A model generated the notes under the pieces. That model ran no database searches and was not told where the DNA came from. It worked only from the letters and a program-made list of their open reading frames with translations. A DNA stretch of 64,000 bases. Origin: Nemertoderma westbladi (taxonomy: Eukaryota; Animalia; Xenacoelomorpha). The translations under genes were made by a program, and so were the position numbers. This document shows, piece after piece, positions 40 to 29,413 of this stretch (positions are counted from its first letter, which is position 1; every line of letters starts with the position of its first letter). The DNA lies in assembly GCA_032718475.1 (NCBI GenBank), contig JAUCBJ010001846.1, forward strand, positions 62,001 through 126,000, read 5' to 3'.

Positions 40-708
40 ATGGGAAACTCCCCGTTACTTCGCTTATTACAGCTAGCTAACCCCGCCAAACCCATTGGGG
101 GGTATTGTTATTCAGCTGGGCTTGAAGGGGCTGTGAACACTGGCCTTGTGCAAAACAAAAAAGACCTTCAAGATTGGCTAAACACCCTGCTAGGTGAGGT
201 GCTTGTGTACAATGATTGTGCCTTAATGATTCGATTAATGCAGAGTTTATGCGCATCGAACATGTCCCAACTTTTACACTGGAACCAGTATGCGCTGGCT
301 ATTTTAGGTAACCAAGAGGCCTATGACGAGTCTAGAAAAATGGGTCAAGCCTTGCTGATGCTGGCCAAAAAACTGGGTATTCAGTTGCCTGCTAAACCTG
401 TTGACACACCCATCAGTTATGTCGTTTCTTATTGTTTGGTGGGGCATGCTTGGGGTATTTCCACCAACGACCTTATTTTAACCTATTTGTGGGGGTGGTT
501 AGAAAACCAACTATCTGGGGCCATGCGCTTACTACCCATTGGCCATTATGAAACACAAAAAATAATGTTAGCAGCTGATCAAACAATCAGTGCCTCCACA
601 CAGTTGGCCAAAAAAGTGCGCGATGACCAAATGGGGAAAAGCCTGCCGTTTTTTGAGCTATTATGTGCACAACACCAAACCCAATATACGCGTTTATTTC
701 AATCTTAA
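40..708 (+). CDS. ureF: Urease accessory protein UreF (intact copy)
   Basis: [22 protein letters not shown]-terminal motif, C-terminal YTRLFQS, directly upstream of ureG. Confidence 0.9.
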
Positions 709-719
709 AAGGAGGTATG

Positions 720-1325
720 ATGAAAAAAAGCCCATTTCGAATTGGTATCGGGGGGCCTGTTGGTTCAGGCAAAACAGCATTGATTCAACAATTGTGTATG
801 AATATGAAAGACACCTATCAAATGGCCGTTGTGACCAACGACATTTACACCCAAGAAGATGCCCAATTTTTAGCCAAACACCAAGCACTAGAAGCGGACC
901 GAATTGTGGGGGTTGAAACAGGCGGGTGTCCACACACGGCTATTCGGGAAGATGCCTCCGCTAATTTAATGGCCATTGAAGGTTTGGAAAAACGCTTCGA
1001 TAACCTAGATTTAATCATTGTTGAATCAGGGGGCGATAATTTAAGTGCCACCTTTAGCCCCGATTTGGCTGATATGACCTTGTATGTTATTGATGTTTGC
1101 GCGGGTGATAAAATACCTCGAAAAGGAGGTCCAGGCATTACCCGCTCTGATTTGCTGATCATCAACAAAATGGATTTAGCCCCCTATGTGGGCGCATCGC
1201 TGGCGATGATGAAAAAAGATTCAACAAGGATGCGAGGCGATAAACCCTTTGTATTCACCAACTTAAAAACACAACAAAATGTAAACCAAGTGATTGACTA
1301 CATTCAAACCAACATGGTGCTGTAG
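720..1325 (+). CDS. ureG: Urease accessory GTPase UreG (copy 1)
   Basis: [10 protein letters not shown]-loop, ETGGCPH, ESGGDNL and NKMD motifs; SD AGGAGG at 710-715 (start 717 or 720). Confidence 0.97.
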
Positions 1326-1356
1326 GCGACAGTACATTGATTAAGTGTTACCGTTT

Positions 1357-2337
1357 TCAGTCAATTAATTGATCAACTAAGTTTAACAAGGTTTGCTGCT
1401 CGTCTTGATCCAACATGCTACCTGAAAGTATTTGGTCAACCGCCTTGCGCCAATTTTGTAAATATTGTTGGGCTTGAGAAAGGGCAGTTGTTTGGTGAAA
1501 ATGACTTAAAATTAACCGAATTTGGCTATCATCACGTTTTTTAATGTAGCTTTCTACCTGTGTCTTCAGTGTGCTGGATGCCTGCATACCTAAAATTAGT
1601 GGCAAGGTGATTTTCCCTTCCACTAAATCGTGACCAGAAGGTTTGCCTAGCACATGATCTGACGACTGATAATCCAACAGATCATCAGATAATTGAAAAA
1701 TCATGCCCACATAATAGCCATAGCGTGAAAAAATCGTACATATCTCAGGGCTTGCGCTATGAGTATGGCAAACAATTTTGCCGATTAACTCAAACAAGCT
1801 GGCTGTTTTTTTCTCAATGATTTTTAAATAATCATTGATTGATAAATCAATATTAAATGCCAAGCGCATTTGGCTGACCTCACCTTCAGCCAATACACTC
1901 ATACAATGAGAAAACTCATACCCAAGACTTGGGTCATCGGCAACCAACATCAAGGCGCGGGCGGATAAAAAATCACCCGCCAAAATACTCAATGTATTGC
2001 CCCAAACATGACGTACACTGGGTTGGTGACGCCTAAATTCAGCTTGATCGATCACATCATCATGCAGTAAAGTCGCCATGTGAATCATTTCAATTGCCGC
2101 GGCTTGTTTAAAGTCTGTCTGCACATTTGTTACATCTTTTTTTGGGTGTGTTGTCATGATTTGATCAAGCATCATCCATACAAGTGGACGAATCATTTTG
2201 CCCTGACGTGCTAAATAATAATGAATAATCTCAGCTAGCAGCGGCTCATCACTTTGAAAACAAGTGGAAAAATAGGTCTTAAACTGCTTAAAACGTTCAG
2301 CAATTTGGGTATGTTGAGCGAATATTTTTTCAAACAT
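1357..2337 (-). CDS. ispB: Polyprenyl (octaprenyl) diphosphate synthase (copy 1)
   Basis: GKMIRP, LLHDDVID...RR and FQLSDDLLD aspartate-rich motifs; likely start MFEKIF at 2337. Confidence 0.9.
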   Translation of the reverse strand: MFEKIFAQHTQIAERFKQFKTYFSTCFQSDEPLLAEIIHYYLARQGKMIRPLVWMMLDQIMTTHPKKDVTNVQTDFKQAAAIEMIHMATLLHDDVIDQAEFRRHQPSVRHVWGNTLSILAGDFLSARALMLVADDPSLGYEFSHCMSVLAEGEVSQMRLAFNIDLSINDYLKIIEKKTASLFELIGKIVCHTHSASPEICTIFSRYGYYVGMIFQLSDDLLDYQSSDHVLGKPSGHDLVEGKITLPLILGMQASSTLKTQVESYIKKRDDSQIRLILSHFHQTTALSQAQQYLQNWRKAVDQILSGSMLDQDEQQTLLNLVDQLID

Positions 2338-2348
2338 GCCTGCTTTGA

Positions 2349-2747
2349 TTACTGAACACAACTCACCACCCGTCCAACAATAATCAAAAGTGGAGACTGT
2401 AGGCGTATATTCCCCACCCAAGCCTCGGCTTTTTTCAATTGTGTTTTATAAATCTGTTGATCGGCTGTGGTACCTTTGACAATAAAAGCCATGGGGGTAT
2501 CTAGTGGCATACCGTGGTCTTTTAAATTTTTAATACAAATATCTAAACTAGCTTTTCCCATGAAAAATACCAATGTTTTAAACGGATCAATTACCTTTTC
2601 CCATGGCACTTGATAGGCGAGCTTGCCCGAACCATCGCCATGTAGGGTTAAAAACTCAACCGAATGGGCACAGTCGCGATGCGTTAGGGGAATGTTGGCA
2701 TAAGACGCACAGCCATTGGCCGCACTGACCCCTGGGACAATGCTAAA
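2349..2747 (-). pseudogene. cysG: 5'-truncated duplicate of cysG (C-terminal ~132 codons only)
   Basis: Identical to 10911-11309 and cut at the repeat/island junction. Confidence 0.92.
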
Positions 2748-2821
2748 AACAAGACTGAAAACAGGATCAAGGGGGTGTTGAGGAGGAGGGGTGTGTTATA
2801 AAGTTTAAGGGTGAAAAATAG

Positions 2822-2890
2822 TGACATTGATTTTGGAAATTATTTTTCATTTCTATTGTCATTTTTTTTCAAAATGAGTGTTAACTGAAT
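2822..2890 (+). repeat. 69-bp partial copy of the MITE-like element at 29100-29269 (right part)
   Basis: TGACATTGATTTTGGAAA...GAGTGTTAACTGAAT matches 29200-29268 at 67/69. Confidence 0.9.
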
Positions 2891-2921
2891 GAAATATAAA
2901 ATTAACTTGTCACTCAACCTG

Positions 2922-3788
2922 TCATCCTACATCCACCAAAGCCCCAAAAATACTCTCTAAATCCAGACTTAAAGATTCAATTGGACGAATCAGCATGGCA
3001 AAATACGTTTGCCAAAGAATCACACCTGCCACGCCTTGCATATTAAAACTAATGACATAGCCTGCAATCAGTGTTACAAACATCAATAAGTAGACAGGCA
3101 ATGTCAGCATAAAGTTTTCTCTTGCATTCTTTATCATCTTCAATGCGATGGTTTCATACCATTTAGGTAGATGCTCAGAGAGATGTGTTTGTTTAAGGGT
3201 TTGAATGGATTGTTCTGTTTCTTTTTCGGCTAAGTTATTCCATTGTGTTCTATTGTATTTATATTTGCCTTTTATAAAAAAGCTATAGCCCAGTACAAAC
3301 ACGACACTAAAGATACAAAGCAAAGTGATAGATAGATTGATGGTAATGCTTAAAAATATAAGGGCTAATATAATTTGCAAACATGTTCCCAATATTAAGG
3401 TAGAAGATTCTGTAAAGATTGATATATAAGCCTGTCTTGTTCTTTCAAATGTTTCAATCGCATGGTCTTTATTGATTGAATGCTTTTGCGTAGCCTGAAT
3501 GCTCTGATAAGAAAAAAGTCTTGATCCATAAATATTGAGGTAAGTTGTAACTGCATGCATTGCAATGTTGAAGATGCCAAATATAGCGGTAATGCTTAAC
3601 ATCAATATCACGCTTTTTAAAACTTCTGGTGAGGTGCTGTTGGCATCTAAAAAGAGTTGGTAAATTCCTAAAGGAAATATCATGGAAACTAAAGAAGTAC
3701 ATACAAGAAGCGTTAAGAATACATAACTTAACTTTTTAGGCAAAGTTTTAAATGCTTGTTGTAGAGTTTTGATATAAAGCTTAAACAT
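2922..3788 (-). CDS. ABC exporter transmembrane domain (lasso D-like), no nucleotide-binding domain, possibly truncated
   Basis: About 6 hydrophobic segments; ends LIRPIESLS...ALVDVG, where ABC membrane domains join the NBD; no Walker A. Confidence 0.65.
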   Translation of the reverse strand: MFKLYIKTLQQAFKTLPKKLSYVFLTLLVCTSLVSMIFPLGIYQLFLDANSTSPEVLKSVILMLSITAIFGIFNIAMHAVTTYLNIYGSRLFSYQSIQATQKHSINKDHAIETFERTRQAYISIFTESSTLILGTCLQIILALIFLSITINLSITLLCIFSVVFVLGYSFFIKGKYKYNRTQWNNLAEKETEQSIQTLKQTHLSEHLPKWYETIALKMIKNARENFMLTLPVYLLMFVTLIAGYVISFNMQGVAGVILWQTYFAMLIRPIESLSLDLESIFGALVDVG

Positions 3789-5679
3789 CTTTTAAAGTTT
3801 CTTTCACTTTGGGGCTTGTGTAGTTGGGGTGGGAGAGTTTCAGTTTGGTGGCTTTATCGTTTTTTATAAAACGAAGCCAGCTTTCTGCTATTAGTTGATT
3901 ATGCAAATAACCTGTTCGCAAAGAAGCTGGATAGCCCTTGATTCTTGAAGAGGAAAGTTCCGAATATAGAAGCTTTAGAAATTCTTTTGGCTCTACCATA
4001 TTAAATTGATACAACATGGATGCAGAAGGATTGTTGGTAAAAATATCTAATAACTTTTGACTGTCATTTCTAATCATATGAACCATCATCTCGCCATAAG
4101 ATGTTTTAAATTTTTTAGTTCTAATAGATTCAGGCATAATATTTGAGAAACTGTGTCTTTGAATTTGTTTTTCTCTTGCATATTCTTCATAAAAAGAAAT
4201 ATCTTCGTGATAAGCAATATCATAAAGAAAGTGCTGAGCAATGGAATCAAAAAATTCAATAATACGTGCATCTAGCAACGGTGTTTTGTATGGAATCATA
4301 GAACTAAAAGCATCATGAAAATAAGAAGGATACTCTTCTAAAAATAAATGTCTTTGTCTATGAGTTAGTGTTGGTTCTTTTATCCATTTGCTTTGATTCA
4401 GCAATATTTTAAAAAAAGAACTAAGATTTACTTTGCCTGATACATTGTGTTCATACATGAAAGCATTGGGAATGAAAGTTAATTTGTTTCCTAAATAAAT
4501 CAGCAAACTTAAATAGAAGGACTTAAAAGAACTATTGCCAAGTTTTTGAATCACTTTAGATATACTTGCAAAACCTTTTTGCTGCATCAAATCATCTAAG
4601 CAATATTGACTACCTTCAGTTACATAATCGCCTTCACCACTCCATATAGAATGACAACCTAATTGTACAGCTAAGTTTTCTATAATTTCTTGCCAAAAAG
4701 GAAGACTCGTTGTAGCGGGTGTATCAATTCTTCTCCATGCGTCATTTGAAGATAGGCCATGAATATGAAGTAGCTTAGAACATTCAATAGGATAAAACTG
4801 GCAAGCTGTTTGATCAGCACACTGTTTAGCTAAGCCTAAGTCGTTGGTGTTGTGAAATACAGGATCACTAAAATACATGCTAAGTGCATAATTAGATTGC
4901 TTTTTATTGGCATAAATTGCACTAGCCACGGTTGCAGAATCTAAACCTCCGCTTATTTCAATCAGTTTTTTAGATGAATCTTGTGTTGTAACGACATTTT
5001 TCATCAAGTCTTCAAACGATTCACAGGCTTCTTTGAAAGATAACTTAGTTAAATCATTAGGATAATTGGAGTAATTAGAATAAGTTTTGTGCTCAATATC
5101 TAAAATCTGTTTCTTCAGATGAAAGCTAATACATGTGCCGCTACCCAAAAGCCTGACATTTTTTAAGCAGGTATCATGAAAAGATTCTGAAATATTATTT
5201 TGAAAAGAAAGCCACTGTTGTAAGCGTTGAGCATCTACCTCTAATTCAAAATTAGGAATCAGAAGTAAAATTCTTGAATCCGTTGTAATGTAATGGTTAT
5301 TGTGAAGCGATACCACATAAAGAGGAGGGCTTGTATAAAACGATGAAATAATTAAAAACTGATTGCCTGTATAAGCTGTGGCAATATAGATGCCTGCAAT
5401 ATCTTTTCTTGCCTCATTGTAGTTATTTTTCCATCTATCATTCCATAGCTGTTTATCTATTATTGGGTTTTCAAGATTCATGTATTGATCATTAAAAGTA
5501 CAAAAGCCTTGCCCTAAAAAGTTGGCATTTAGTTTTTGATATTGGTGTCTAAAGATTGCTTTCTTAACAATGCCTGCATCTTGTAAAAAGGATTTAAAAT
5601 CATTTCCAAGCCACTCTTTGCAAGACAAATACCATTGTTTAATCAACGCTTCTTTTTTTCCAATTCCAATCATCAACAT
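3781..5679 (-). CDS. Lasso peptide cyclase (asparagine-synthetase-like, C protein)
   Basis: EISGGLDSATV PP-loop, WSGEGD, TPLLDARIIEF; 632 aa; no N-terminal Cys of true AsnB; adjacent to B2, RRE and precursor. Confidence 0.9.
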   Translation of the reverse strand: MLMIGIGKKEALIKQWYLSCKEWLGNDFKSFLQDAGIVKKAIFRHQYQKLNANFLGQGFCTFNDQYMNLENPIIDKQLWNDRWKNNYNEARKDIAGIYIATAYTGNQFLIISSFYTSPPLYVVSLHNNHYITTDSRILLLIPNFELEVDAQRLQQWLSFQNNISESFHDTCLKNVRLLGSGTCISFHLKKQILDIEHKTYSNYSNYPNDLTKLSFKEACESFEDLMKNVVTTQDSSKKLIEISGGLDSATVASAIYANKKQSNYALSMYFSDPVFHNTNDLGLAKQCADQTACQFYPIECSKLLHIHGLSSNDAWRRIDTPATTSLPFWQEIIENLAVQLGCHSIWSGEGDYVTEGSQYCLDDLMQQKGFASISKVIQKLGNSSFKSFYLSLLIYLGNKLTFIPNAFMYEHNVSGKVNLSSFFKILLNQSKWIKEPTLTHRQRHLFLEEYPSYFHDAFSSMIPYKTPLLDARIIEFFDSIAQHFLYDIAYHEDISFYEEYAREKQIQRHSFSNIMPESIRTKKFKTSYGEMMVHMIRNDSQKLLDIFTNNPSASMLYQFNMVEPKEFLKLLYSELSSSRIKGYPASLRTGYLHNQLIAESWLRFIKNDKATKLKLSHPNYTSPKVKETLKDV

Positions 5680-5684
5680 GGTAT

Positions 5685-6152
5685 TTACAATAATACTTGA
5701 TGGAGGTTATCCTGAAGGTAGTTTTCTTTTTTGATGACAGTTAATCCCCTTATTTGATTGAATATGTCTATTTGTTGTAAAGATTTTTTGGTTTGATACT
5801 CTAACCAAGCATGTTGAATAATTTTACCACCCGCTCCATCTTTTGCTACTGCGTAAACAACATAGGACTTAAAACCAAATACCCCGCAATACAAATGAAA
5901 AGCAACAGAGGCAGTTAAACAAGTTAATGCTATATTATTGTTTTCATAATTGCTTGCTACAAGTTTTCGTAAACGATTGAGCTTTTTATGGAACAAAAAG
6001 CTGATGGGTTCTTGTGGATGGAATGTGGTATCAATGTAACTGCATTGCCGACAACATTTTAAAATCGCTTTATCTGTAGTTTTAGATTCATTGAGGTTTG
6101 ATAAAAAACTAGCATGTAAGAGCTTAAAAAGTAATAAATCTTTTTTCATCAA
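5685..6152 (-). CDS. Lasso leader peptidase (B2, transglutaminase-like)
   Basis: TCLTASVA ... QHAWLEY Cys/His motifs typical of lasso B2; 155 aa. Confidence 0.88.
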   Translation of the reverse strand: MMKKDLLLFKLLHASFLSNLNESKTTDKAILKCCRQCSYIDTTFHPQEPISFLFHKKLNRLRKLVASNYENNNIALTCLTASVAFHLYCGVFGFKSYVVYAVAKDGAGGKIIQHAWLEYQTKKSLQQIDIFNQIRGLTVIKKENYLQDNLHQVLL

Positions 6153-6952
6153 AGGTTAAAGTCTGCATGTAAAGCAAATGCCCAACTGTTTGCATGAAAA
6201 CTAAATTGTTTTTTATGTTGATCTAACACATAGTGAGCACTTAAATGGCTACTTTCTATTTTTTCAATAATATTGCCTTGGCGCTTATTTTCTGCCTTTG
6301 AAATACAGCTATTAAGTAAAAGTACTTCTGCATGATGTTTTAAGGCTGTGTTTTGAAGAAATCTTATGTATTTTTGATATTTAGAATATGCATTTTTTAC
6401 AGAATAATCTCTAAAAAACAAATCAGGTAAGGCTATTAAAATACCTTTGTTATTAAGAACAGATGGAATCTTTCTAAGATAAGAAGTAATGTCATAACAA
6501 AAGATCAAATTGATTCCAAAAAATGAAGCATATTGAATCCATCTTTTTTCCAAAACGGGCATCCAACTTCTTCTATAAATTAAAATTTCAATCTGATCTT
6601 CTCTTTTTAAACGTAAATTAAAAACCAAGGAGAATATATAAGGTAATAGAAACTTACCATGAGCTGATATAACAATAAAAGGTTGATTCCATTTCTCTAC
6701 ATCGACTTCTATAAAATTTTGGAAATACTTTGCAAAAGCAATATGTTGTGAACAACATAAATAATCATAGTATACCCTCATGTTGTTGATATAACCTTTT
6801 TCCAAAAGCAACCTTTGGGCTTTAGGCAAGGTAAATCTCAAAACAAAATTATGCAGATACGCTAAAGCAGTATGAAGACATCTTTTATAAAAGGAGGTAT
6901 AAAAACTTCTTAAAAATAAATGAAGATGTAAAGACTCTACACAAGCCTTCAT
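6149..6952 (-). CDS. Divergent lipid-A/lysophospholipid acyltransferase-like protein (LpxL/HtrB-like)
   Basis: FIVISAHG, NKGILIALPD and C-terminal NSWAFALH follow the LpxL motif order; the acidic residue of HxxxxD/E is not evident. Confidence 0.55.
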   Translation of the reverse strand: MKACVESLHLHLFLRSFYTSFYKRCLHTALAYLHNFVLRFTLPKAQRLLLEKGYINNMRVYYDYLCCSQHIAFAKYFQNFIEVDVEKWNQPFIVISAHGKFLLPYIFSLVFNLRLKREDQIEILIYRRSWMPVLEKRWIQYASFFGINLIFCYDITSYLRKIPSVLNNKGILIALPDLFFRDYSVKNAYSKYQKYIRFLQNTALKHHAEVLLLNSCISKAENKRQGNIIEKIESSHLSAHYVLDQHKKQFSFHANSWAFALHADFNL

Positions 6953-7530
6953 GTTTGACTATAAAAAGCTACTTTTTCATCTTCTATTGTATAACCCATA
7001 TTTTTTAGAGCACTTCGGGCAATAGCAAATGCCTTTTTAAGAGGCATGTGGGTTAGCATCTCAAATAGAAGCAGCGTAAACAATAAAGTAGAGTTGCCAT
7101 CGGGGTAACGAGGAAAGCCAATATAGTTTTTAGTTTTATGTTCTAACCAAACATCTGCCCAAGTTTGAGTACCTGTCATACAAGCAGTAGAAAGTATCAA
7201 TTGACATTTGCTTTTGTTTGGATGTTGTGAAAGTAAAGTTTCAAGTTGTTGAGTTTGAATGAGATTATTCTCAAACTTGTACTTTAAGGGCACAGATTCG
7301 TGGACTTCAGGTAAAGAAAAACCTGCGTTGTCTTGCGAATCACTGTCTCCATGCCCGTCAATAATCAGGTAAGGGGTTTTAGGTGTTTTTGTAATATGTT
7401 TTACAAAATCATCAGCGCTTCCGATATAGTGCATCAATACTTCGTAACATAAATATTCTAAAGATGATCGTATAGCTTGAGTGGACAATGAATCACTGAT
7501 GCAAAAAATGGTTACTTTTTTGTTTTTCAC
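6949..7530 (-). CDS. Stand-alone caspase/CHAT-like (clan CD) cysteine protease
   Basis: YLIIDGHG and LILSTACMTG, i.e. His-Gly and Ala-Cys dyad motifs each after a hydrophobic strand; GTG start. Confidence 0.65.
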   Translation of the reverse strand: MKNKKVTIFCISDSLSTQAIRSSLEYLCYEVLMHYIGSADDFVKHITKTPKTPYLIIDGHGDSDSQDNAGFSLPEVHESVPLKYKFENNLIQTQQLETLLSQHPNKSKCQLILSTACMTGTQTWADVWLEHKTKNYIGFPRYPDGNSTLLFTLLLFEMLTHMPLKKAFAIARSALKNMGYTIEDEKVAFYSQT

Positions 7531-7804
7531 AAAGATTGTGTTTTTGAATTAAACCAACCTCTATTAAATCATCAATAGCCAATTGTAAATAGTTTTTAGA
7601 TGAATGTTTAGAATCGGTTACTATTTCTATTGATTCAGCTATATTTGAAAGTTCGTTTAATGTAAGTTTTTTGTTTTCTAAAATTTTTTGAACAATAAAC
7701 GTGTGAACTTCTGAAAGCTCCAATATTTCTTCGTCTTTGTGTACCACCATGTTGTTGTCTAAAACAACATGGTGCATACCACAATAAGCGTAAGCTTCTT
7801 TCAT
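7493..7804 (-). CDS. RiPP recognition element (PqqD-like, lasso B1)
   Basis: About 100 aa; LELSEVHTFIVQKI...LAIDDLIEVGLI PqqD-like pattern; directly downstream of the precursor. Confidence 0.75.
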   Translation of the reverse strand: MKEAYAYCGMHHVVLDNNMVVHKDEEILELSEVHTFIVQKILENKKLTLNELSNIAESIEIVTDSKHSSKNYLQLAIDDLIEVGLIQKHNLCEKQKSNHFLHQ

Positions 7805-7809
7805 ATAAG

Positions 7810-7974
7810 CTAACTACCGCCACCGATACTGATAGTGCCTGTATTAAAACCGGAGCCACCACCTTTAGAGCCTCTCGGACGTGTTCCGTCACCCGGTTTA
7901 TTCTTTGTTCTCTGCGTTGCAATAGCAATATCTCCATGTTTCTTAATAGGAACATAATTTAATTTTTTCTTCAT
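7810..7974 (-). CDS. Lasso peptide precursor, 54 aa: leader MKKKLNYVPIKKHGDIAIATQ + RTKNKPGDGTRPRGSKGGGSGFNTGTISIGGGS
   Basis: SD GGAGG at 7980-7984; leader has Y-x-P...G-x5-T-x with Thr at -2; Asp at core position 8; first gene of the cluster. Confidence 0.9.
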   Translation of the reverse strand: MKKKLNYVPIKKHGDIAIATQRTKNKPGDGTRPRGSKGGGSGFNTGTISIGGGS

Positions 7975-8560
7975 AAATACCTCCACAGATTTCAAAATAA
8001 GATTTTAACTTAATAAACTCCCTTATTTCAAGATACTTTTAATAAATCTACATGTTGTAAATTCTTAAAAATCATATCCCCACGCAAATAAAGCAGTATA
8101 AAAATGAATTTAGATACCAAATATGAAGCAGGATTTTTTTGCTTATTCCAGAAAAAAGCAGGGATAATCTCATCTTTAACATGGCCTTTGTTATTGAGTG
8201 CATCCCCTACCAGCAGTAATCTTTTAATCAAGAACAGACATATGAATGAAGTTGCCAGAACGCTAATATCTGTTCATTTTGATGAACAACGATACTTGAA
8301 TCCAACTTAACATGTATAGAATCGACAAATTGATAAACACACATTTGGGCTTAAAAGTAGCCCCATGAAACTATCTTTCCCCTTATTAATTGGTTGCTGA
8401 CACTATTTAACCTCCAAGTAACACCCATTTTTCTCAATTTGATTCTCCGTTTGATTCACATTCCATCATTTTCTTGAGGGTTAATGAATTAGATGTGTTG
8501 GTTGTTTTTGTGAATGCTTATGACCTATTCTTTAAACAAAACTTGATTCAACACCATTAG

Positions 8561-8755
8561 TTAAAGACATTGCGCATTACTTGGATTTGAAAGTATATAA
8601 GCAGTTTCTTCATAAGATTGAAAATCTTCAAGGCTCATTACAACAGCAGTTTTCTTGTTTTGACGAGTAATCAAAATGGGCTGATGATCATCACTGACTT
8701 TGTCTAGGTTTTTTGCTAATTGATCTCGGAATGAAGAGTAAGTAATCGTTTCCAT
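8561..8755 (-). pseudogene. yefM: Phd/YefM antitoxin, C-terminally shortened, orphan (no toxin gene)
   Basis: METITYSSFRDQLA...ITRQNKKTAVVMSLEDFQSYEETAY; 64 aa vs ~83 typical; start lies 17 bp from the island junction. Confidence 0.8.
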
Positions 8756-8772
8756 ATAAAATTTGGTTTAAT

Positions 8773-9270
8773 AATGATTGTGCCTTAATGATTCGATTAA
8801 TGCAGAGTTTATGCGCATCGAACATGTCCCAACTTTTACACTGGAACCAGTATGCGCTGGCTATTTTAGGTAACCAAGAGGCCTATGACGAGTCTAGAAA
8901 AATGGGTCAAGCCTTGCTGATGCTGGCCAAAAAACTGGGTATTCAGTTGCCTGCTAAACCTGTTGACACACCCATCAGTTATGTCGTTTCTTATTGTTTG
9001 GTGGGGCATGCTTGGGGTATTTCCACCAACGACCTTATTTTAACCTATTTGTGGGGGTGGTTAGAAAACCAACTATCTGGGGCCATGCGCTTACTACCCA
9101 TTGGCCATTATGAAACACAAAAAATAATGTTAGCAGCTGATCAAACAATCAGTGCCTCCACACAGTTGGCCAAAAAAGTGCGCGATGACCAAATGGGGAA
9201 AAGCCTGCCGTTTTTTGAGCTATTATGTGCACAACACCAAACCCAATATACGCGTTTATTTCAATCTTAA
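8773..9270 (+). pseudogene. ureF: 5'-truncated duplicate of ureF (first 57 codons missing)
   Basis: Identical to 211-708 and cut at the junction. Confidence 0.92.
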
Positions 9271-9281
9271 AAGGAGGTATG

Positions 9282-9887
9282 ATGAAAAAAAGCCCATTTC
9301 GAATTGGTATCGGGGGGCCTGTTGGTTCAGGCAAAACAGCATTGATTCAACAATTGTGTATGAATATGAAAGACACCTATCAAATGGCCGTTGTGACCAA
9401 CGACATTTACACCCAAGAAGATGCCCAATTTTTAGCCAAACACCAAGCACTAGAAGCGGACCGAATTGTGGGGGTTGAAACAGGCGGGTGTCCACACACG
9501 GCTATTCGGGAAGATGCCTCCGCTAATTTAATGGCCATTGAAGGTTTGGAAAAACGCTTCGATAACCTAGATTTAATCATTGTTGAATCAGGGGGCGATA
9601 ATTTAAGTGCCACCTTTAGCCCCGATTTGGCTGATATGACCTTGTATGTTATTGATGTTTGCGCGGGTGATAAAATACCTCGAAAAGGAGGTCCAGGCAT
9701 TACCCGCTCTGATTTGCTGATCATCAACAAAATGGATTTAGCCCCCTATGTGGGCGCATCGCTGGCGATGATGAAAAAAGATTCAACAAGGATGCGAGGC
9801 GATAAACCCTTTGTATTCACCAACTTAAAAACACAACAAAATGTAAACCAAGTGATTGACTACATTCAAACCAACATGGTGCTGTAG
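9282..9887 (+). CDS. ureG: UreG (copy 2)
   Basis: Translation identical to copy 1. Confidence 0.95.
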
Positions 9888-9918
9888 GCGACAGTACATT
9901 GATTAAGTGTTACCGTTT

Positions 9919-10899
9919 TCAGTCAATTAATTGATCAACTAAGTTTAACAAGGTTTGCTGCTCGTCTTGATCCAACATGCTACCTGAAAGTATTTGGTCA
10001 ACCGCCTTGCGCCAATTTTGTAAATATTGTTGGGCTTGAGAAAGGGCAGTTGTTTGGTGAAAATGACTTAAAATTAACCGAATTTGGCTATCATCACGTT
10101 TTTTAATGTAGCTTTCTACCTGTGTCTTCAGTGTGCTGGATGCCTGCATACCTAAAATTAGTGGCAAGGTGATTTTCCCTTCCACTAAATCGTGACCAGA
10201 AGGTTTGCCTAGCACATGATCTGACGACTGATAATCCAACAGATCATCAGATAATTGAAAAATCATGCCCACATAATAGCCATAGCGTGAAAAAATCGTA
10301 CATATCTCAGGGCTTGCGCTATGAGTATGGCAAACAATTTTGCCGATTAACTCAAACAAGCTGGCTGTTTTTTTCTCAATGATTTTTAAATAATCATTGA
10401 TTGATAAATCAATATTAAATGCCAAGCGCATTTGGCTGACCTCACCTTCAGCCAATACACTCATACAATGAGAAAACTCATACCCAAGACTTGGGTCATC
10501 GGCAACCAACATCAAGGCGCGGGCGGATAAAAAATCACCCGCCAAAATACTCAATGTATTGCCCCAAACATGACGTACACTGGGTTGGTGACGCCTAAAT
10601 TCAGCTTGATCGATCACATCATCATGCAGTAAAGTCGCCATGTGAATCATTTCAATTGCCGCGGCTTGTTTAAAGTCTGTCTGCACATTTGTTACATCTT
10701 TTTTTGGGTGTGTTGTCATGATTTGATCAAGCATCATCCATACAAGTGGACGAATCATTTTGCCCTGACGTGCTAAATAATAATGAATAATCTCAGCTAG
10801 CAGCGGCTCATCACTTTGAAAACAAGTGGAAAAATAGGTCTTAAACTGCTTAAAACGTTCAGCAATTTGGGTATGTTGAGCGAATATTTTTTCAAACAT
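9919..10899 (-). CDS. ispB: Polyprenyl diphosphate synthase (copy 2)
   Basis: Translation identical to copy 1. Confidence 0.9.
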   Translation of the reverse strand: MFEKIFAQHTQIAERFKQFKTYFSTCFQSDEPLLAEIIHYYLARQGKMIRPLVWMMLDQIMTTHPKKDVTNVQTDFKQAAAIEMIHMATLLHDDVIDQAEFRRHQPSVRHVWGNTLSILAGDFLSARALMLVADDPSLGYEFSHCMSVLAEGEVSQMRLAFNIDLSINDYLKIIEKKTASLFELIGKIVCHTHSASPEICTIFSRYGYYVGMIFQLSDDLLDYQSSDHVLGKPSGHDLVEGKITLPLILGMQASSTLKTQVESYIKKRDDSQIRLILSHFHQTTALSQAQQYLQNWRKAVDQILSGSMLDQDEQQTLLNLVDQLID

Positions 10900-10910
10900 G
10901 CCTGCTTTGA

Positions 10911-12284
10911 TTACTGAACACAACTCACCACCCGTCCAACAATAATCAAAAGTGGAGACTGTAGGCGTATATTCCCCACCCAAGCCTCGGCTTTTTTCAA
11001 TTGTGTTTTATAAATCTGTTGATCGGCTGTGGTACCTTTGACAATAAAAGCCATGGGGGTATCTAGTGGCATACCGTGGTCTTTTAAATTTTTAATACAA
11101 ATATCTAAACTAGCTTTTCCCATGAAAAATACCAATGTTTTAAACGGATCAATTACCTTTTCCCATGGCACTTGATAGGCGAGCTTGCCCGAACCATCGC
11201 CATGTAGGGTTAAAAACTCAACCGAATGGGCACAGTCGCGATGCGTTAGGGGAATGTTGGCATAAGACGCACAGCCATTGGCCGCACTGACCCCTGGGAC
11301 AATGCTAAAGGGAATGCTGTGATCGGCTAAATGCGTAATTTCCTCACCCCCCCGACCAAAAACAAATGGGTCACCCCCTTTTAATCGAACCACATGCTTG
11401 CCTGCTTGGTAATGTTCAACCATCAGATCACAAATAACCGATTGTGGAACACTTTTGCCATAGCCGCGTTTACCCACCGCAACTAACTGAGCATCTCGCC
11501 TTACAAATTCTAAAACGCCCTGACCGATTAGTTGATCATGCAACAACACATCAGCACGTCTCATCAATCGACAAGCTTTGAGTGTTAAAAGCTCAGGGTC
11601 GCCTGGCCCTGCACCCACAATTGAGACACTGCCTGTATGATGTTGACGATTATTAAACTGTTTTAAGCAAGTGTTGGCATGGGCTAACATGGCTTGATGG
11701 GTTTGATAATTCAACAATTGATCTAATTGGTCATCCAGCAAGTATTGCCAAAAACGTTTTTTGGTTTCATCCAAACGCATTTTTTGAACCAAAGGGCGTA
11801 GGGTGTCAACCACCTCAATTAACTGGGTATAAGTTTTGGGCAGTTGTTGGAGTAGGTGTTTGCGAATGCCAGCACTGAGCATGGGGGCTTTGGTGCTGCT
11901 ACTGATGGCAATTAAAAGGGGGCTGCGATCAATCACAGACGGGACAACCGCACTACAAAAATTGGGCTGGTCAACTACATTTACCAAACAGTTTGTTTGA
12001 CTTGCTTGATGATAAATTTGTTGATTAATCAAGGGGTCATCGGTTGCAGCAATCACCAAGAACTGATCCTCTAAATCACATAGGTCATAACATCGTTTGA
12101 CTAAAAATAATCGGTGGGTTTGATCGTCCAGTGTCTTAATTTCAGGTAAAATTTCGGGGGCAACAACTGTTAGTATCACACCGGCTTGATAAAGGCGTTT
12201 TGCTTTTTGAAACGCAATTTTTCCCCCACCCACAATTAAACACTTTTTTTGATGCAGGTCTAAAAAAAGGGGGTACAAACTCAT
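10911..12284 (-). CDS. cysG: Siroheme synthase (multifunctional CysG)
   Basis: YPLFLDL..IVGGG dehydrogenase domain; VGAGPGDPELLTLKA and RLKGGDPFVFGRGGEE methyltransferase motifs. Confidence 0.97.
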   Translation of the reverse strand: MSLYPLFLDLHQKKCLIVGGGKIAFQKAKRLYQAGVILTVVAPEILPEIKTLDDQTHRLFLVKRCYDLCDLEDQFLVIAATDDPLINQQIYHQASQTNCLVNVVDQPNFCSAVVPSVIDRSPLLIAISSSTKAPMLSAGIRKHLLQQLPKTYTQLIEVVDTLRPLVQKMRLDETKKRFWQYLLDDQLDQLLNYQTHQAMLAHANTCLKQFNNRQHHTGSVSIVGAGPGDPELLTLKACRLMRRADVLLHDQLIGQGVLEFVRRDAQLVAVGKRGYGKSVPQSVICDLMVEHYQAGKHVVRLKGGDPFVFGRGGEEITHLADHSIPFSIVPGVSAANGCASYANIPLTHRDCAHSVEFLTLHGDGSGKLAYQVPWEKVIDPFKTLVFFMGKASLDICIKNLKDHGMPLDTPMAFIVKGTTADQQIYKTQLKKAEAWVGNIRLQSPLLIIVGRVVSCVQ

Positions 12285-12736
12285 TGACTTAACAATTGAT
12301 CTTGCAAGAAATAATCAAATCGTGAAAAAGCCGCTTCAATGGCTTGCAAACTGTAGGGCTTTGCAAATAAAAAACCATTAATACCGCAACGGCGCATAAA
12401 ACCAATTTGATCGAGCAATACATCCCCCACCGCGACGATCATATTTTGATAATGTAGGTCATTCACCAAACGATACGCCTGACTATAGCCCCGCCCATCT
12501 GTAAATGCTGGGAACTCAATTTCGATCACTGATAAAGACTGATAATTAATTGATTGCAAATCAATCACATGATCAACTGATGAAAGCCGAACCCCTAGTG
12601 GTAGCGCATTTTCAAGCAAGCTGGGTTCATTTTTAACCCACTCAATGGGTAAAACGGTGTTTTCAACTAATTGATCAGGTGATGTTTTAAAGTGCCAAGG
12701 GTAGGGGCAAAAATCACCTTTGTGATAAAAGTTCAT
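12281..12736 (-). CDS. DUF934 family protein
   Basis: IEFPAFTDGRGYSQAYRL...GDVLLDQ...MRRCG; typical partner of cysI. Confidence 0.9.
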   Translation of the reverse strand: MNFYHKGDFCPYPWHFKTSPDQLVENTVLPIEWVKNEPSLLENALPLGVRLSSVDHVIDLQSINYQSLSVIEIEFPAFTDGRGYSQAYRLVNDLHYQNMIVAVGDVLLDQIGFMRRCGINGFLFAKPYSLQAIEAAFSRFDYFLQDQLLSQ

Positions 12737-28377: not shown

Positions 28378-29413
28378 CTAAATTTTTTGCTTGGGAAAAG
28401 CACTTGAAAAGGTGATGACCTGCTGGGCGATTTGCGCAATAGCGTACTCATAAAAGGCTTGGTTTGCTTGGGTGTCACATAAGCCAAAAAGTTGTTGGCC
28501 TGCTTGGGTAAAAAGTGCTTTTCCTGTTTGTAACTGGTTGTTATCTTTTTTAGGGAACTCAAGTAATATTGGCTGCTTGTGATAAAAAAATATTGCCACC
28601 TCCATAGAGCCCATACTTTTCGTACCCTCCAACTGGATCAAACGATATTAACCCAATGGCATCTAAATGTTTTAGCGCTTTAAAATTAATCCCTTGCTCC
28701 TTGTATATTTCATTTTCATAATCAAAAATCAGAGGCACTCCATCCCCTATCACCCACACAAACTGGCAAAATTTTGTAAAAAACTTTGCATCACTTTTAT
28801 CCATCAAGGCCACTAAATTAAGCGTTCGTTTTGAATAGACGTTAGGGTTGGTAGCCTCTTTTGCCAATAAATTTGCCCAAAGTAATTGCATGATTGTATC
28901 CGATACCTTATCGCAGTGATCAAACAAATGAACCAACCAGTCTTCATCTAATTTTTCGGGCTTGGCATTTGGGGGCAGGTTTTTGATGGCTTGGGTAGTG
29001 ATTGATTCAGTATTTTTTGTTTTCGGGTTTGTTGGTGTGCCCACCAAACAGCCGCACGCTTTTCAATACCACCAACGGCTACATCCGCCTTGGCCATTAC
29101 ACTGGAGTAACACACATTCTGAAAACTACAAAAAGATACCAAAAACACTCCAACCTCAAACACACCAAAAAATCATGGCAATTTATCTATTCAAGAAAAT
29201 GACATTGATTTTGGAAAATCTTTTTCATTTCTATTGTCATTTTTTTTCAAAATGAGTGTTAACTGAATTTTATGATTTTAGCTTTTTGTCCTCGGCCTTT
29301 TTAACGATTCTTTTAGGCTCATACAAAATATCAACTGCATTGAACATTTTTTTAGAAAACACAGTTGCAGGCTTGGTTAAATCACCTAAATCAACAGAAA
29401 TATTATCTAGCAT
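28378..29413 (-). pseudogene. DUF2806-like protein, frameshifted and interrupted by a 170-bp insertion
   Basis: SD GGAGG + MLDNISVDLGDLTKPATV at 29413; continues MAKADV..., LDEDWL...VSD..MQLLWANLLAKEA..P..YSKRTL in pieces. Confidence 0.78.
29100..29269. mobile_element. 170-bp non-coding MITE-like insertion with sub-terminal inverted repeats
   Basis: 18-bp IRs at 29108-29125 and 29244-29261 (16/18), each 8 bp from the end; flanked by TTA at 29097-29099 and 29270-29272; removal rejoins the gene in frame. Confidence 0.7.

Follow-up and report, generated by a model that had tools for sequence, protein, structure and literature searches.

The 267-aa ORF at 6149-6952 of the window (the whole stretch of 64,000 nucleotides that was analysed) is a real gene, coupled to both of its neighbours within a lasso peptide cluster. 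Its product is predicted, with good support, to adopt the LPLAT fold of the LpxM/PatA type and, as judged by sequence comparison, it lies outside the LpxL/LpxM late lipid A acyltransferase family (PF03279). We tentatively propose, with somewhat less than even confidence, that this protein transfers a fatty acyl chain to a Ser or Thr hydroxyl of the lasso peptide, which would give a lipidated lasso. The cluster spans 5 kb and, together with the repeat copies that enclose it, is organised as follows:

211..2747, no strand assigned, exact direct repeat of 2537 bp, left copy (spans ureG and polyprenyl synthetase, with part of ureF and the 3' part of cysG)
2922..3788, minus strand, membrane protein of 288 aa (hydropathy threshold exceeded in 5 segments, with ABC-exporter-like spacing)
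3781..5679, minus strand, C, lasso cyclase, asparagine-synthetase-like (lasso and Asn-synthetase models, mostly below cut-off)
5685..6152, minus strand, B2, lasso leader peptidase, transglutaminase-like (PF13471 E 5e-5 and NF033537 E 1.5e-4, both below cut-off)
6149..6952, minus strand, 267-aa LPLAT-fold (LpxM/PatA-like) protein (fold search, profile match, alignment)
6949..7530, minus strand, 193-aa probable caspase/CHAT-like His-Cys peptidase (GHG and TAC motifs, by eye)
7493..7804, minus strand, probable RRE/B1 of 103 aa (resembles PqqD by eye; family searches gave nothing significant)
7810..7974, minus strand, 54-aa lasso precursor (ATG at 7974 behind GGAGG)
8773..11309, no strand assigned, right copy of the exact 2537-bp direct repeat (sequence repeat)

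The 267-aa ORF is read from 6952 to 6149 without any internal stop, the plus frame being rich in stops, and the probability of 267 open codons arising by chance at the local base composition is about 2e-10. The original prediction had described this ORF as carrying ISAHG, ILIALPD and SWAFALH in that order, as overlapping both neighbours by 4 bp and as belonging to a lasso operon, and most of this description stands. The three motifs, which contain His98 (codon 6661-6659), Asp177 (codon 6424-6422) and Trp257, do occur in this order along the ORF, and all of them sit on columns invariant in 7/7 family members (see below). The upstream overlap is indeed 4 bp, the start sharing ATGA with the stop of the 193-aa gene; the downstream one is 4 bp only if B2 starts at the TTG at 6152, and is otherwise 1 bp (TGATG, with the next ATG). 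The lasso setting, with B1 and the peptidase on one side and B2 on the other, is probable, with B2 and C matches below or near curated cut-offs and a B1 recognised by eye.

phmmer, run in full against 1.84 billion representatives, returned six relatives (E 1.2e-13 to 4e-5), one of them a hypothetical protein of Albidovulum. The LPLAT-fold family thus comprises seven sequences, which have a mutual identity of 15-43% and ten invariant columns: H98, R127, R128, E135, W138, Y141, P176, D177, A203 and W257. The ORF has no significant match in Pfam, NCBIfam or PADLOC, and a sequence search of the PDB gave no sensible match; a word-indexed homolog search kept 0/392 candidates for the ORF and 1/7999 for the family alignment. 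No further loci were found in metagenome scans with the family alignment or one relative, none in a viral scan with one relative, and none by tblastn of plasmids with three family sequences. Among 401 genomes of Albidovulum's class, the single match to the family alignment was the Albidovulum genome itself. The family is rare and its distribution patchy. In a second class, the alignment had three matches (E up to 0.01) among 400 genomes; these lie in unrelated frames and were put down to chance.

The fold is supported by several comparisons. An AlphaFold2 model built from the seven-row alignment reaches a pLDDT of 73 and a pTM of 0.69, the pLDDT being below 50 after residue 246. With this model, the top nine Foldseek rows are LpxM and PatA (E 4.8e-4, TM 0.49), and structural re-alignment gives a Z of 11.4 for PatA (rmsd 4.7 Å, 194 aligned residues) and of 10.7 for LpxM (rmsd 5.3 Å, 219 aligned), the next fold reaching 8.0. 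In a search independent of Foldseek, among 48,161 PDB representative chains, a Z of at least 8 was obtained for two, LpxM (10.6) and PatA (10.4). At the sequence level, hhalign relates the family to 28 LpxL-like proteins (those of 30 loci that passed a homology filter) with 91% and E 1.1e-6 over 168 columns, and an HMM of the LpxL-like proteins recovers 5/7 family members at E 0.011 or better, the reversed controls being at E 1 or worse. In the ESM Atlas, the protein lies nearest to three unnamed clusters (0.92-0.94), and the next cluster, at 0.92, has PF03279 in 29% of its members.

Other results separate the family from the late acyltransferases. PF03279 itself does not match the 267-aa ORF, and one of the seven family members matches it at E 0.16. 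In a tree, the seven members are split from the 28 LpxL-like proteins at 100/100, a value to be read in the light of long branches and skewed composition. The first 70 residues are cationic (net +6 to +10 in 7/7) and amphipathic, and are modelled as three long helices; the peak N-terminal hydropathy is 0.85 in the 267-aa protein versus a median of 1.53 in the LpxL-like proteins, with no clear transmembrane helix.

The active site can be read from the alignment, in which His98 falls on LpxM His122, Asp177 on LpxM Asp192 and Trp257 on the C-terminal Trp, while Tyr126-Arg127 aligns to the YR/YK motif. Asp177 is invariant in the family and all 28 LpxL-like proteins have the aligned Asp. In agreement with the original prediction, the acid of the HX4D/E motif is absent: His98+5 is occupied by Leu103, and the acid is found in 0/7 family members versus 28/28 LpxL-like proteins. 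The block-II Arg (R159 in LpxM, R169 in LpxL) is present in 25/28 LpxL-like proteins and in 0/7 family members, which have Ala, Thr or Cys instead. In the LpxM of A. baumannii, His122 is reported to be hydrogen-bonded to Asp192 and Glu127 to pair with Arg159; E127 and R159 are both described as critical, and E137A as lowering E. coli LpxL 3000-fold (PMC6286764). As the two positions that form an ion pair in LpxM were lost jointly, the acceptor site would have been rebuilt in the family; given the LpxM and LpxL results, their loss could also mean low activity. The missing acid need not be a defect, since the dyad of PatA is His126 and Glu200 (PMC8519569), since LpxJ is reported to acylate lipid A without HX4D/E, blocks I and III (D132) being proposed as catalytic (PMC6148475), and since LpxM itself has the His122-Asp192 pair. 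A family in which the His/block-III dyad persists and the Glu/Arg pair is gone would fit an enzyme that is still active, its acceptor site having been rebuilt. All these results bear on the earlier description of the gene as lipid-A-acyltransferase-like: the LPLAT fold, set beforehand as the test, is supported by Foldseek, by the Z search and by hhalign, while membership of LpxL/LpxM is contradicted by the motif, the Arg and Pfam.

The possible substrate is the lasso precursor, whose type and extra tail, like the absence of a recognisable GNAT from the window, had escaped the original prediction. It is predicted to be lariocidin/triculamin-like, with a 21-aa leader and a 33-aa core, Thr standing at position -2:

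RTKNKPGDGTRPRGSKGGGSGFNTGTISIGGGS

This core has PGDG at positions 6-9 with Asp8 as acceptor, the motif that is described as defining the triculamin/lariocidin-like group (PMC12070363). It contains three Lys, three Arg and one Asp, starts with Arg1 and Thr2, and extends beyond Lys16 by a 17-residue Gly/Ser/Thr tail. The NCBIfam model lario_core matches the precursor at E 0.007 with 16.7 bits, under its curated cut-off of 27; the lariocidin core model matched 0/300 genomes and no control, an uninformative outcome.

The remaining cluster genes were compared with plasmid-borne clusters. The best match to cyclase C among 72,556 plasmids, two records of which matched, is the cyclase of a gel/lrc-type cluster of Bacillus wiedmannii (E 5e-16, 23% identity), which contains a GNAT, five precursors, B1, B2, C, two ABC transporters and a clostripain. 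Nine consecutive residues are common to the window core and to 4/5 B. wiedmannii cores, and the 103-aa gene corresponds to the B. wiedmannii B1 in position and size, not in sequence. The B. wiedmannii cluster (3189-12675, on plasmid p536) has its five PGDG precursors in tandem, and they are absent from the gene table of the plasmid. When the B. wiedmannii proteins were used as queries, no GNAT, clostripain or ABC ATPase was detected in 522 window frames (best GNAT match with one query, E 0.43), and no cluster ORF has a GNAT family match; the 267-aa ORF is therefore the only candidate transferase of the cluster. The 288-aa membrane protein has neither an ATPase domain nor a significant match, and an exporter without ATPase could mean that the cluster is decaying. 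A promoter scan gave 12 sites versus 27.5 in shuffles.

The 193-aa neighbour has no hydrophobic segment, and its GHG and TAC motifs are what we take to be the caspase/CHAT pattern. Its ESM Atlas neighbours include a CHAT cluster (0.95, PF12770 in 15% of members), and several unnamed clusters (0.96) include it as a small stand-alone protein. It has no Pfam CHAT match and no PDB match, and its single-sequence model has a pLDDT of 42. A word-indexed homolog search kept 0/124 candidates, and a genome scan gave 0/201, which is uninformative. A relative (E 3e-7) sits next to a GNAT gene on a plasmid of Priestia, outside any lasso cluster. The 193-aa protein is possibly a stand-in for GelP/LrcF, or possibly a passenger.

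A second context could be examined for one of the six relatives of the 267-aa protein, that of Albidovulum, whose contig carries the unit at 5956-7474. Directly upstream of the relative lies a peptide-like ORF of 44-47 aa:

MKTEDTAPVKPTLRDVKASAMVKGVTREYVGGTTTCWSPGCGTS

This short ORF is rich in Thr, Ser and Cys, contains Trp and has no Lys in its last 21 residues. It has no family match, no PGDG and no canonical lasso acceptor, nor would cleavage at any of the likely sites place an Asp or Glu at positions 7-9. Its stop is followed, before the relative, by a hairpin of -27.3 kcal/mol (z -3.9, 0/200 shuffles). The unit sits in a stretch of lower GC, adjoined by capsule genes, and neither a lasso cyclase nor a B2 was found in the incomplete Albidovulum genome. 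By eye, the locus resembles a precursor-plus-enzyme unit, which gives a modest hint at peptide substrates and none at lasso specificity. Two candidates were rejected at this locus: a convergent ORF, cut by the contig end, failed every test as the C-terminus of a lasso cyclase (237/1000 shuffles equalled its score), and two Erwinia plasmid matches to the peptide (E 6) had no related genes nearby and were ascribed to chance. The unit is possibly an undescribed, non-lasso peptide system.

According to the mechanism that we propose, the enzyme would use its amphipathic N-terminal helices to dock on the inner membrane, at its inner face, and draw an acyl chain from acyl-ACP or acyl-CoA, and His98, tuned by Asp177, would deprotonate the peptide hydroxyl. 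The acceptor would most plausibly lie in the extra tail (Ser20, Thr24, Thr26, Ser28 or Ser33) or be Thr2. The lipid could tether or mask the peptide, a cationic inhibitor of the ribosome, and trimming of the tail behind Lys16 may fall to the caspase-like protein next to it in the cluster. Besides the fold, the dyad precedents and the rebuilt acceptor site, three points argue for such O-acylation of the peptide: (i) the characterised relatives that were compared are reported to acylate hydroxyls (PMC8519569, PMC6286764), (ii) the neighbouring peptides of both loci are Ser/Thr-rich, with a Ser at the end, and the Albidovulum one is free of Lys in its C-terminal part, and (iii) the gene, placed between B1/peptidase and B2, overlaps the stop codon of one neighbour and the start codon of the other. 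Against it, all the characterised structural neighbours act on glycolipids, and no RRE domain is evident on the 267-aa protein. When O-acylation and acylation of Lys (discussed below) are taken together, action on the peptide appears slightly favoured. The fullest scenario, in which a lineage of lipid-A type was rebuilt for peptides, lipidates a lariocidin-type lasso on its extra tail, to be unmasked by the caspase-like protein, and has replaced the GNAT, is rather unlikely as a whole.

The setting of the cluster invites another explanation. The cluster forms a 6-kb island (2748-8772) between the two copies of a repeat of host genes; at the repeat ends, the left side has a whole ureF and the 3' part of cysG, and the right side a 5'-cut ureF and a whole cysG. 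The GC of the cluster enzyme genes is 0.29-0.36 versus 0.40-0.43. In one run, the contig depth, which is not a copy number, is 87.5 for the repeat, 49 for the cluster and 32-37 for the flanks, which suggests that the duplication is real and hints at a partial amplification. A 69-bp AT-rich element is found both at 2822-2890, at the downstream end of the cluster, and at 29200-29268, downstream of secA, with 97% identity; it has no significant fold (z -1.5), and loose contig ends at this element suggest further copies elsewhere. The 288-aa exporter-like protein ends about 30 bp before the element and is possibly truncated. At the island edge, a Phd/YefM antitoxin gene (8561-8755, minus strand; Pfam E 1e-21, 62/74 positions) has no recognisable toxin gene beside it.

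The peptidase-like and acyltransferase-like genes could thus be passengers, captured by a mobile island, or the 267-aa protein could be degenerate and bind without catalysis. This would agree with the low GC between duplicated flanks, with the incomplete exporter, with the loss of two LpxM-critical residues and with the 193-aa relative found outside a lasso cluster. We nevertheless hold it to be unlikely, as the ten columns, including the His/Asp pair, have stayed invariant despite 15-43% identity, as the gene, lying between B1 and B2, is linked to its neighbours at either end, and as a short peptide-like ORF also lies directly upstream at the Albidovulum locus.

A second alternative is that the enzyme replaces the GNAT (TriT/GelT/LrcE) and N-acylates Lys3, Lys5 or Lys16 of a cytoplasm-trapped peptide, thereby providing self-resistance. 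GelT is reported to acetylate Lys16 and thus inactivate gelatinamin, while GelP joins the C-terminus to Lys2 (PMC13178200). Acetylation of any Lys is described as abolishing activity, and deletion of gelT or triT as ending heterologous production (PMC13178200, PMC12070363). The window core has kept both the GelT site, Lys16, and the candidate TriT sites, Lys3 and Lys5, and the low GNAT score in the window (E 0.43) and the exporter without ATPase point the same way. This alternative is however quite unlikely in our opinion. The triculamin, gelatinamin and lariocidin clusters carry a GNAT, but the palmamin cluster is reported to work without any acetyltransferase (PMC12070363). The relatives compared are O-acyltransferases according to the reports cited above, the Albidovulum peptide-like ORF has neither PGDG nor C-terminal Lys, and a GNAT may lie elsewhere in the genome, beyond the window.

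The weakest alternative is membrane remodelling, in which acylated or aminoacylated lipid A, or another glycolipid, would let less of the cationic peptide in, in the way that AlmG counters polymyxin; AlmG works on lipid A and has ligase and carrier genes of its own. The structural neighbours are enzymes of lipids, all 7/7 members retain a cationic and amphipathic N-terminus, AlmG of Vibrio cholerae is described as a glycyltransferase of lipid A with a distant relationship to the late acyltransferases (PMC8880301), LpxJ acylates lipid A without HX4D/E (PMC6148475), and the potency of gelatinamin is reported to be limited by outer-membrane permeability (PMC13178200). We consider remodelling improbable all the same, because lariocidin, whose gene set is that of gelatinamin, is reported to bind the small ribosomal subunit (PMC11451635), so that a change in lipid A would not protect against a peptide made inside the cell, because none of the cluster ORFs was recognised as a carrier protein or a ligase, and because the family, rare and patchily distributed, stands well apart from the LpxL clade.

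The lariocidin-type peptides form a new class of ribosome-targeting antibiotics, for which the described tailoring consists of a GNAT and a clostripain. The window cluster seems to exchange both for unrelated or distantly related enzymes, and to have altered the core (Arg1, Thr2, 17 extra residues). Should the LPLAT-fold protein act on the peptide, as we favour, it would add an enzyme family to the lipidation of ribosomal peptides, and would provide either a new route of self-resistance or a natural lipolasso. Under the fullest scenario, the product would be a natural, lipid-masked form of the lariocidin class, made by a new enzyme class for ribosomal-peptide acylation. Were it to act on a lipid, it would still represent a lineage of acyltransferases that is new and whose active site has been rebuilt.

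Compared with known lasso systems, the window cluster shares with gel, lrc, tri and pal a cationic core, PGDG around Asp8, a probable A-B1-B2-C gene set and a probable His-Cys peptidase, and its core has Arg13-Gly14 and Lys16 as in gelatinamin. Unlike gel, lrc and tri, it has an LPLAT-fold gene in place of a GNAT, which was not found in the window; its putative peptidase is a 193-aa cytoplasmic CHAT-like protein, whereas the known clostripain exceeds 400 aa and is, in GelP, a predicted lipoprotein. The core is 33 aa long versus about 18 in known clusters, and the exporter is devoid of ATPase. The core starts with Arg1 and, in contrast to lariocidin and gelatinamin, has Thr2 instead of Lys2, so that the class V (double-ring) acceptor is absent and no such cross-link is expected at position 2, in addition to the lack of a clostripain match in the window frames.

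As for the enzyme, the block-I His and the block-III acid, the YR motif and the C-terminal Trp are all in register with those of LpxM (5KN7/5KNK), LpxL, LpxJ and PatA (5F2Z/7OJT). Its predicted fold is comparable to those of LpxM (A. baumannii) and PatA (M. smegmatis) with a Z of 10.4-11.4 and an rmsd of 4.7-5.7 Å over about 200 residues, and it has predicted amphipathic N-terminal helices, as in the LpxM/PatA group. It differs from LpxM, LpxL, LpxJ and PatA by an identity of 6-14%, by its own invariant Arg128, Glu135, Trp138 and Tyr141, and by its location in a peptide operon. Like AlmG, it could be a relative of late acyltransferases repurposed against a cationic peptide, but no ligase or carrier gene was recognised in its cluster.

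A literature search and one supplement revealed no LPLAT-fold enzyme in a lasso cluster, although the lariocidin and triculamin cluster maps could carry an unlabelled one. Lipidated lassos are already known, from other enzyme families. The original prediction knew of lasso acylation by GNATs only, which is too narrow, since the Tyr of the lipolasso Snou-LP is reported to be lipidated by a CoA-transferase (PMC13352647); lipidated lassos are also described as engineered IatT GNAT products (bioRxiv 2024.12.31.630886). In the consulted reports on AlbT, IatT and Snou-LP, the transferases belong to the GNATs or, for Snou-LP, to the CoA-transferases; their targets are Lys or Tyr, and none has the LPLAT fold. 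The window cluster, like those of albusnodin (AlbT), IatT and Snou-LP, would encode its own transferase for the acylation of its lasso peptide.
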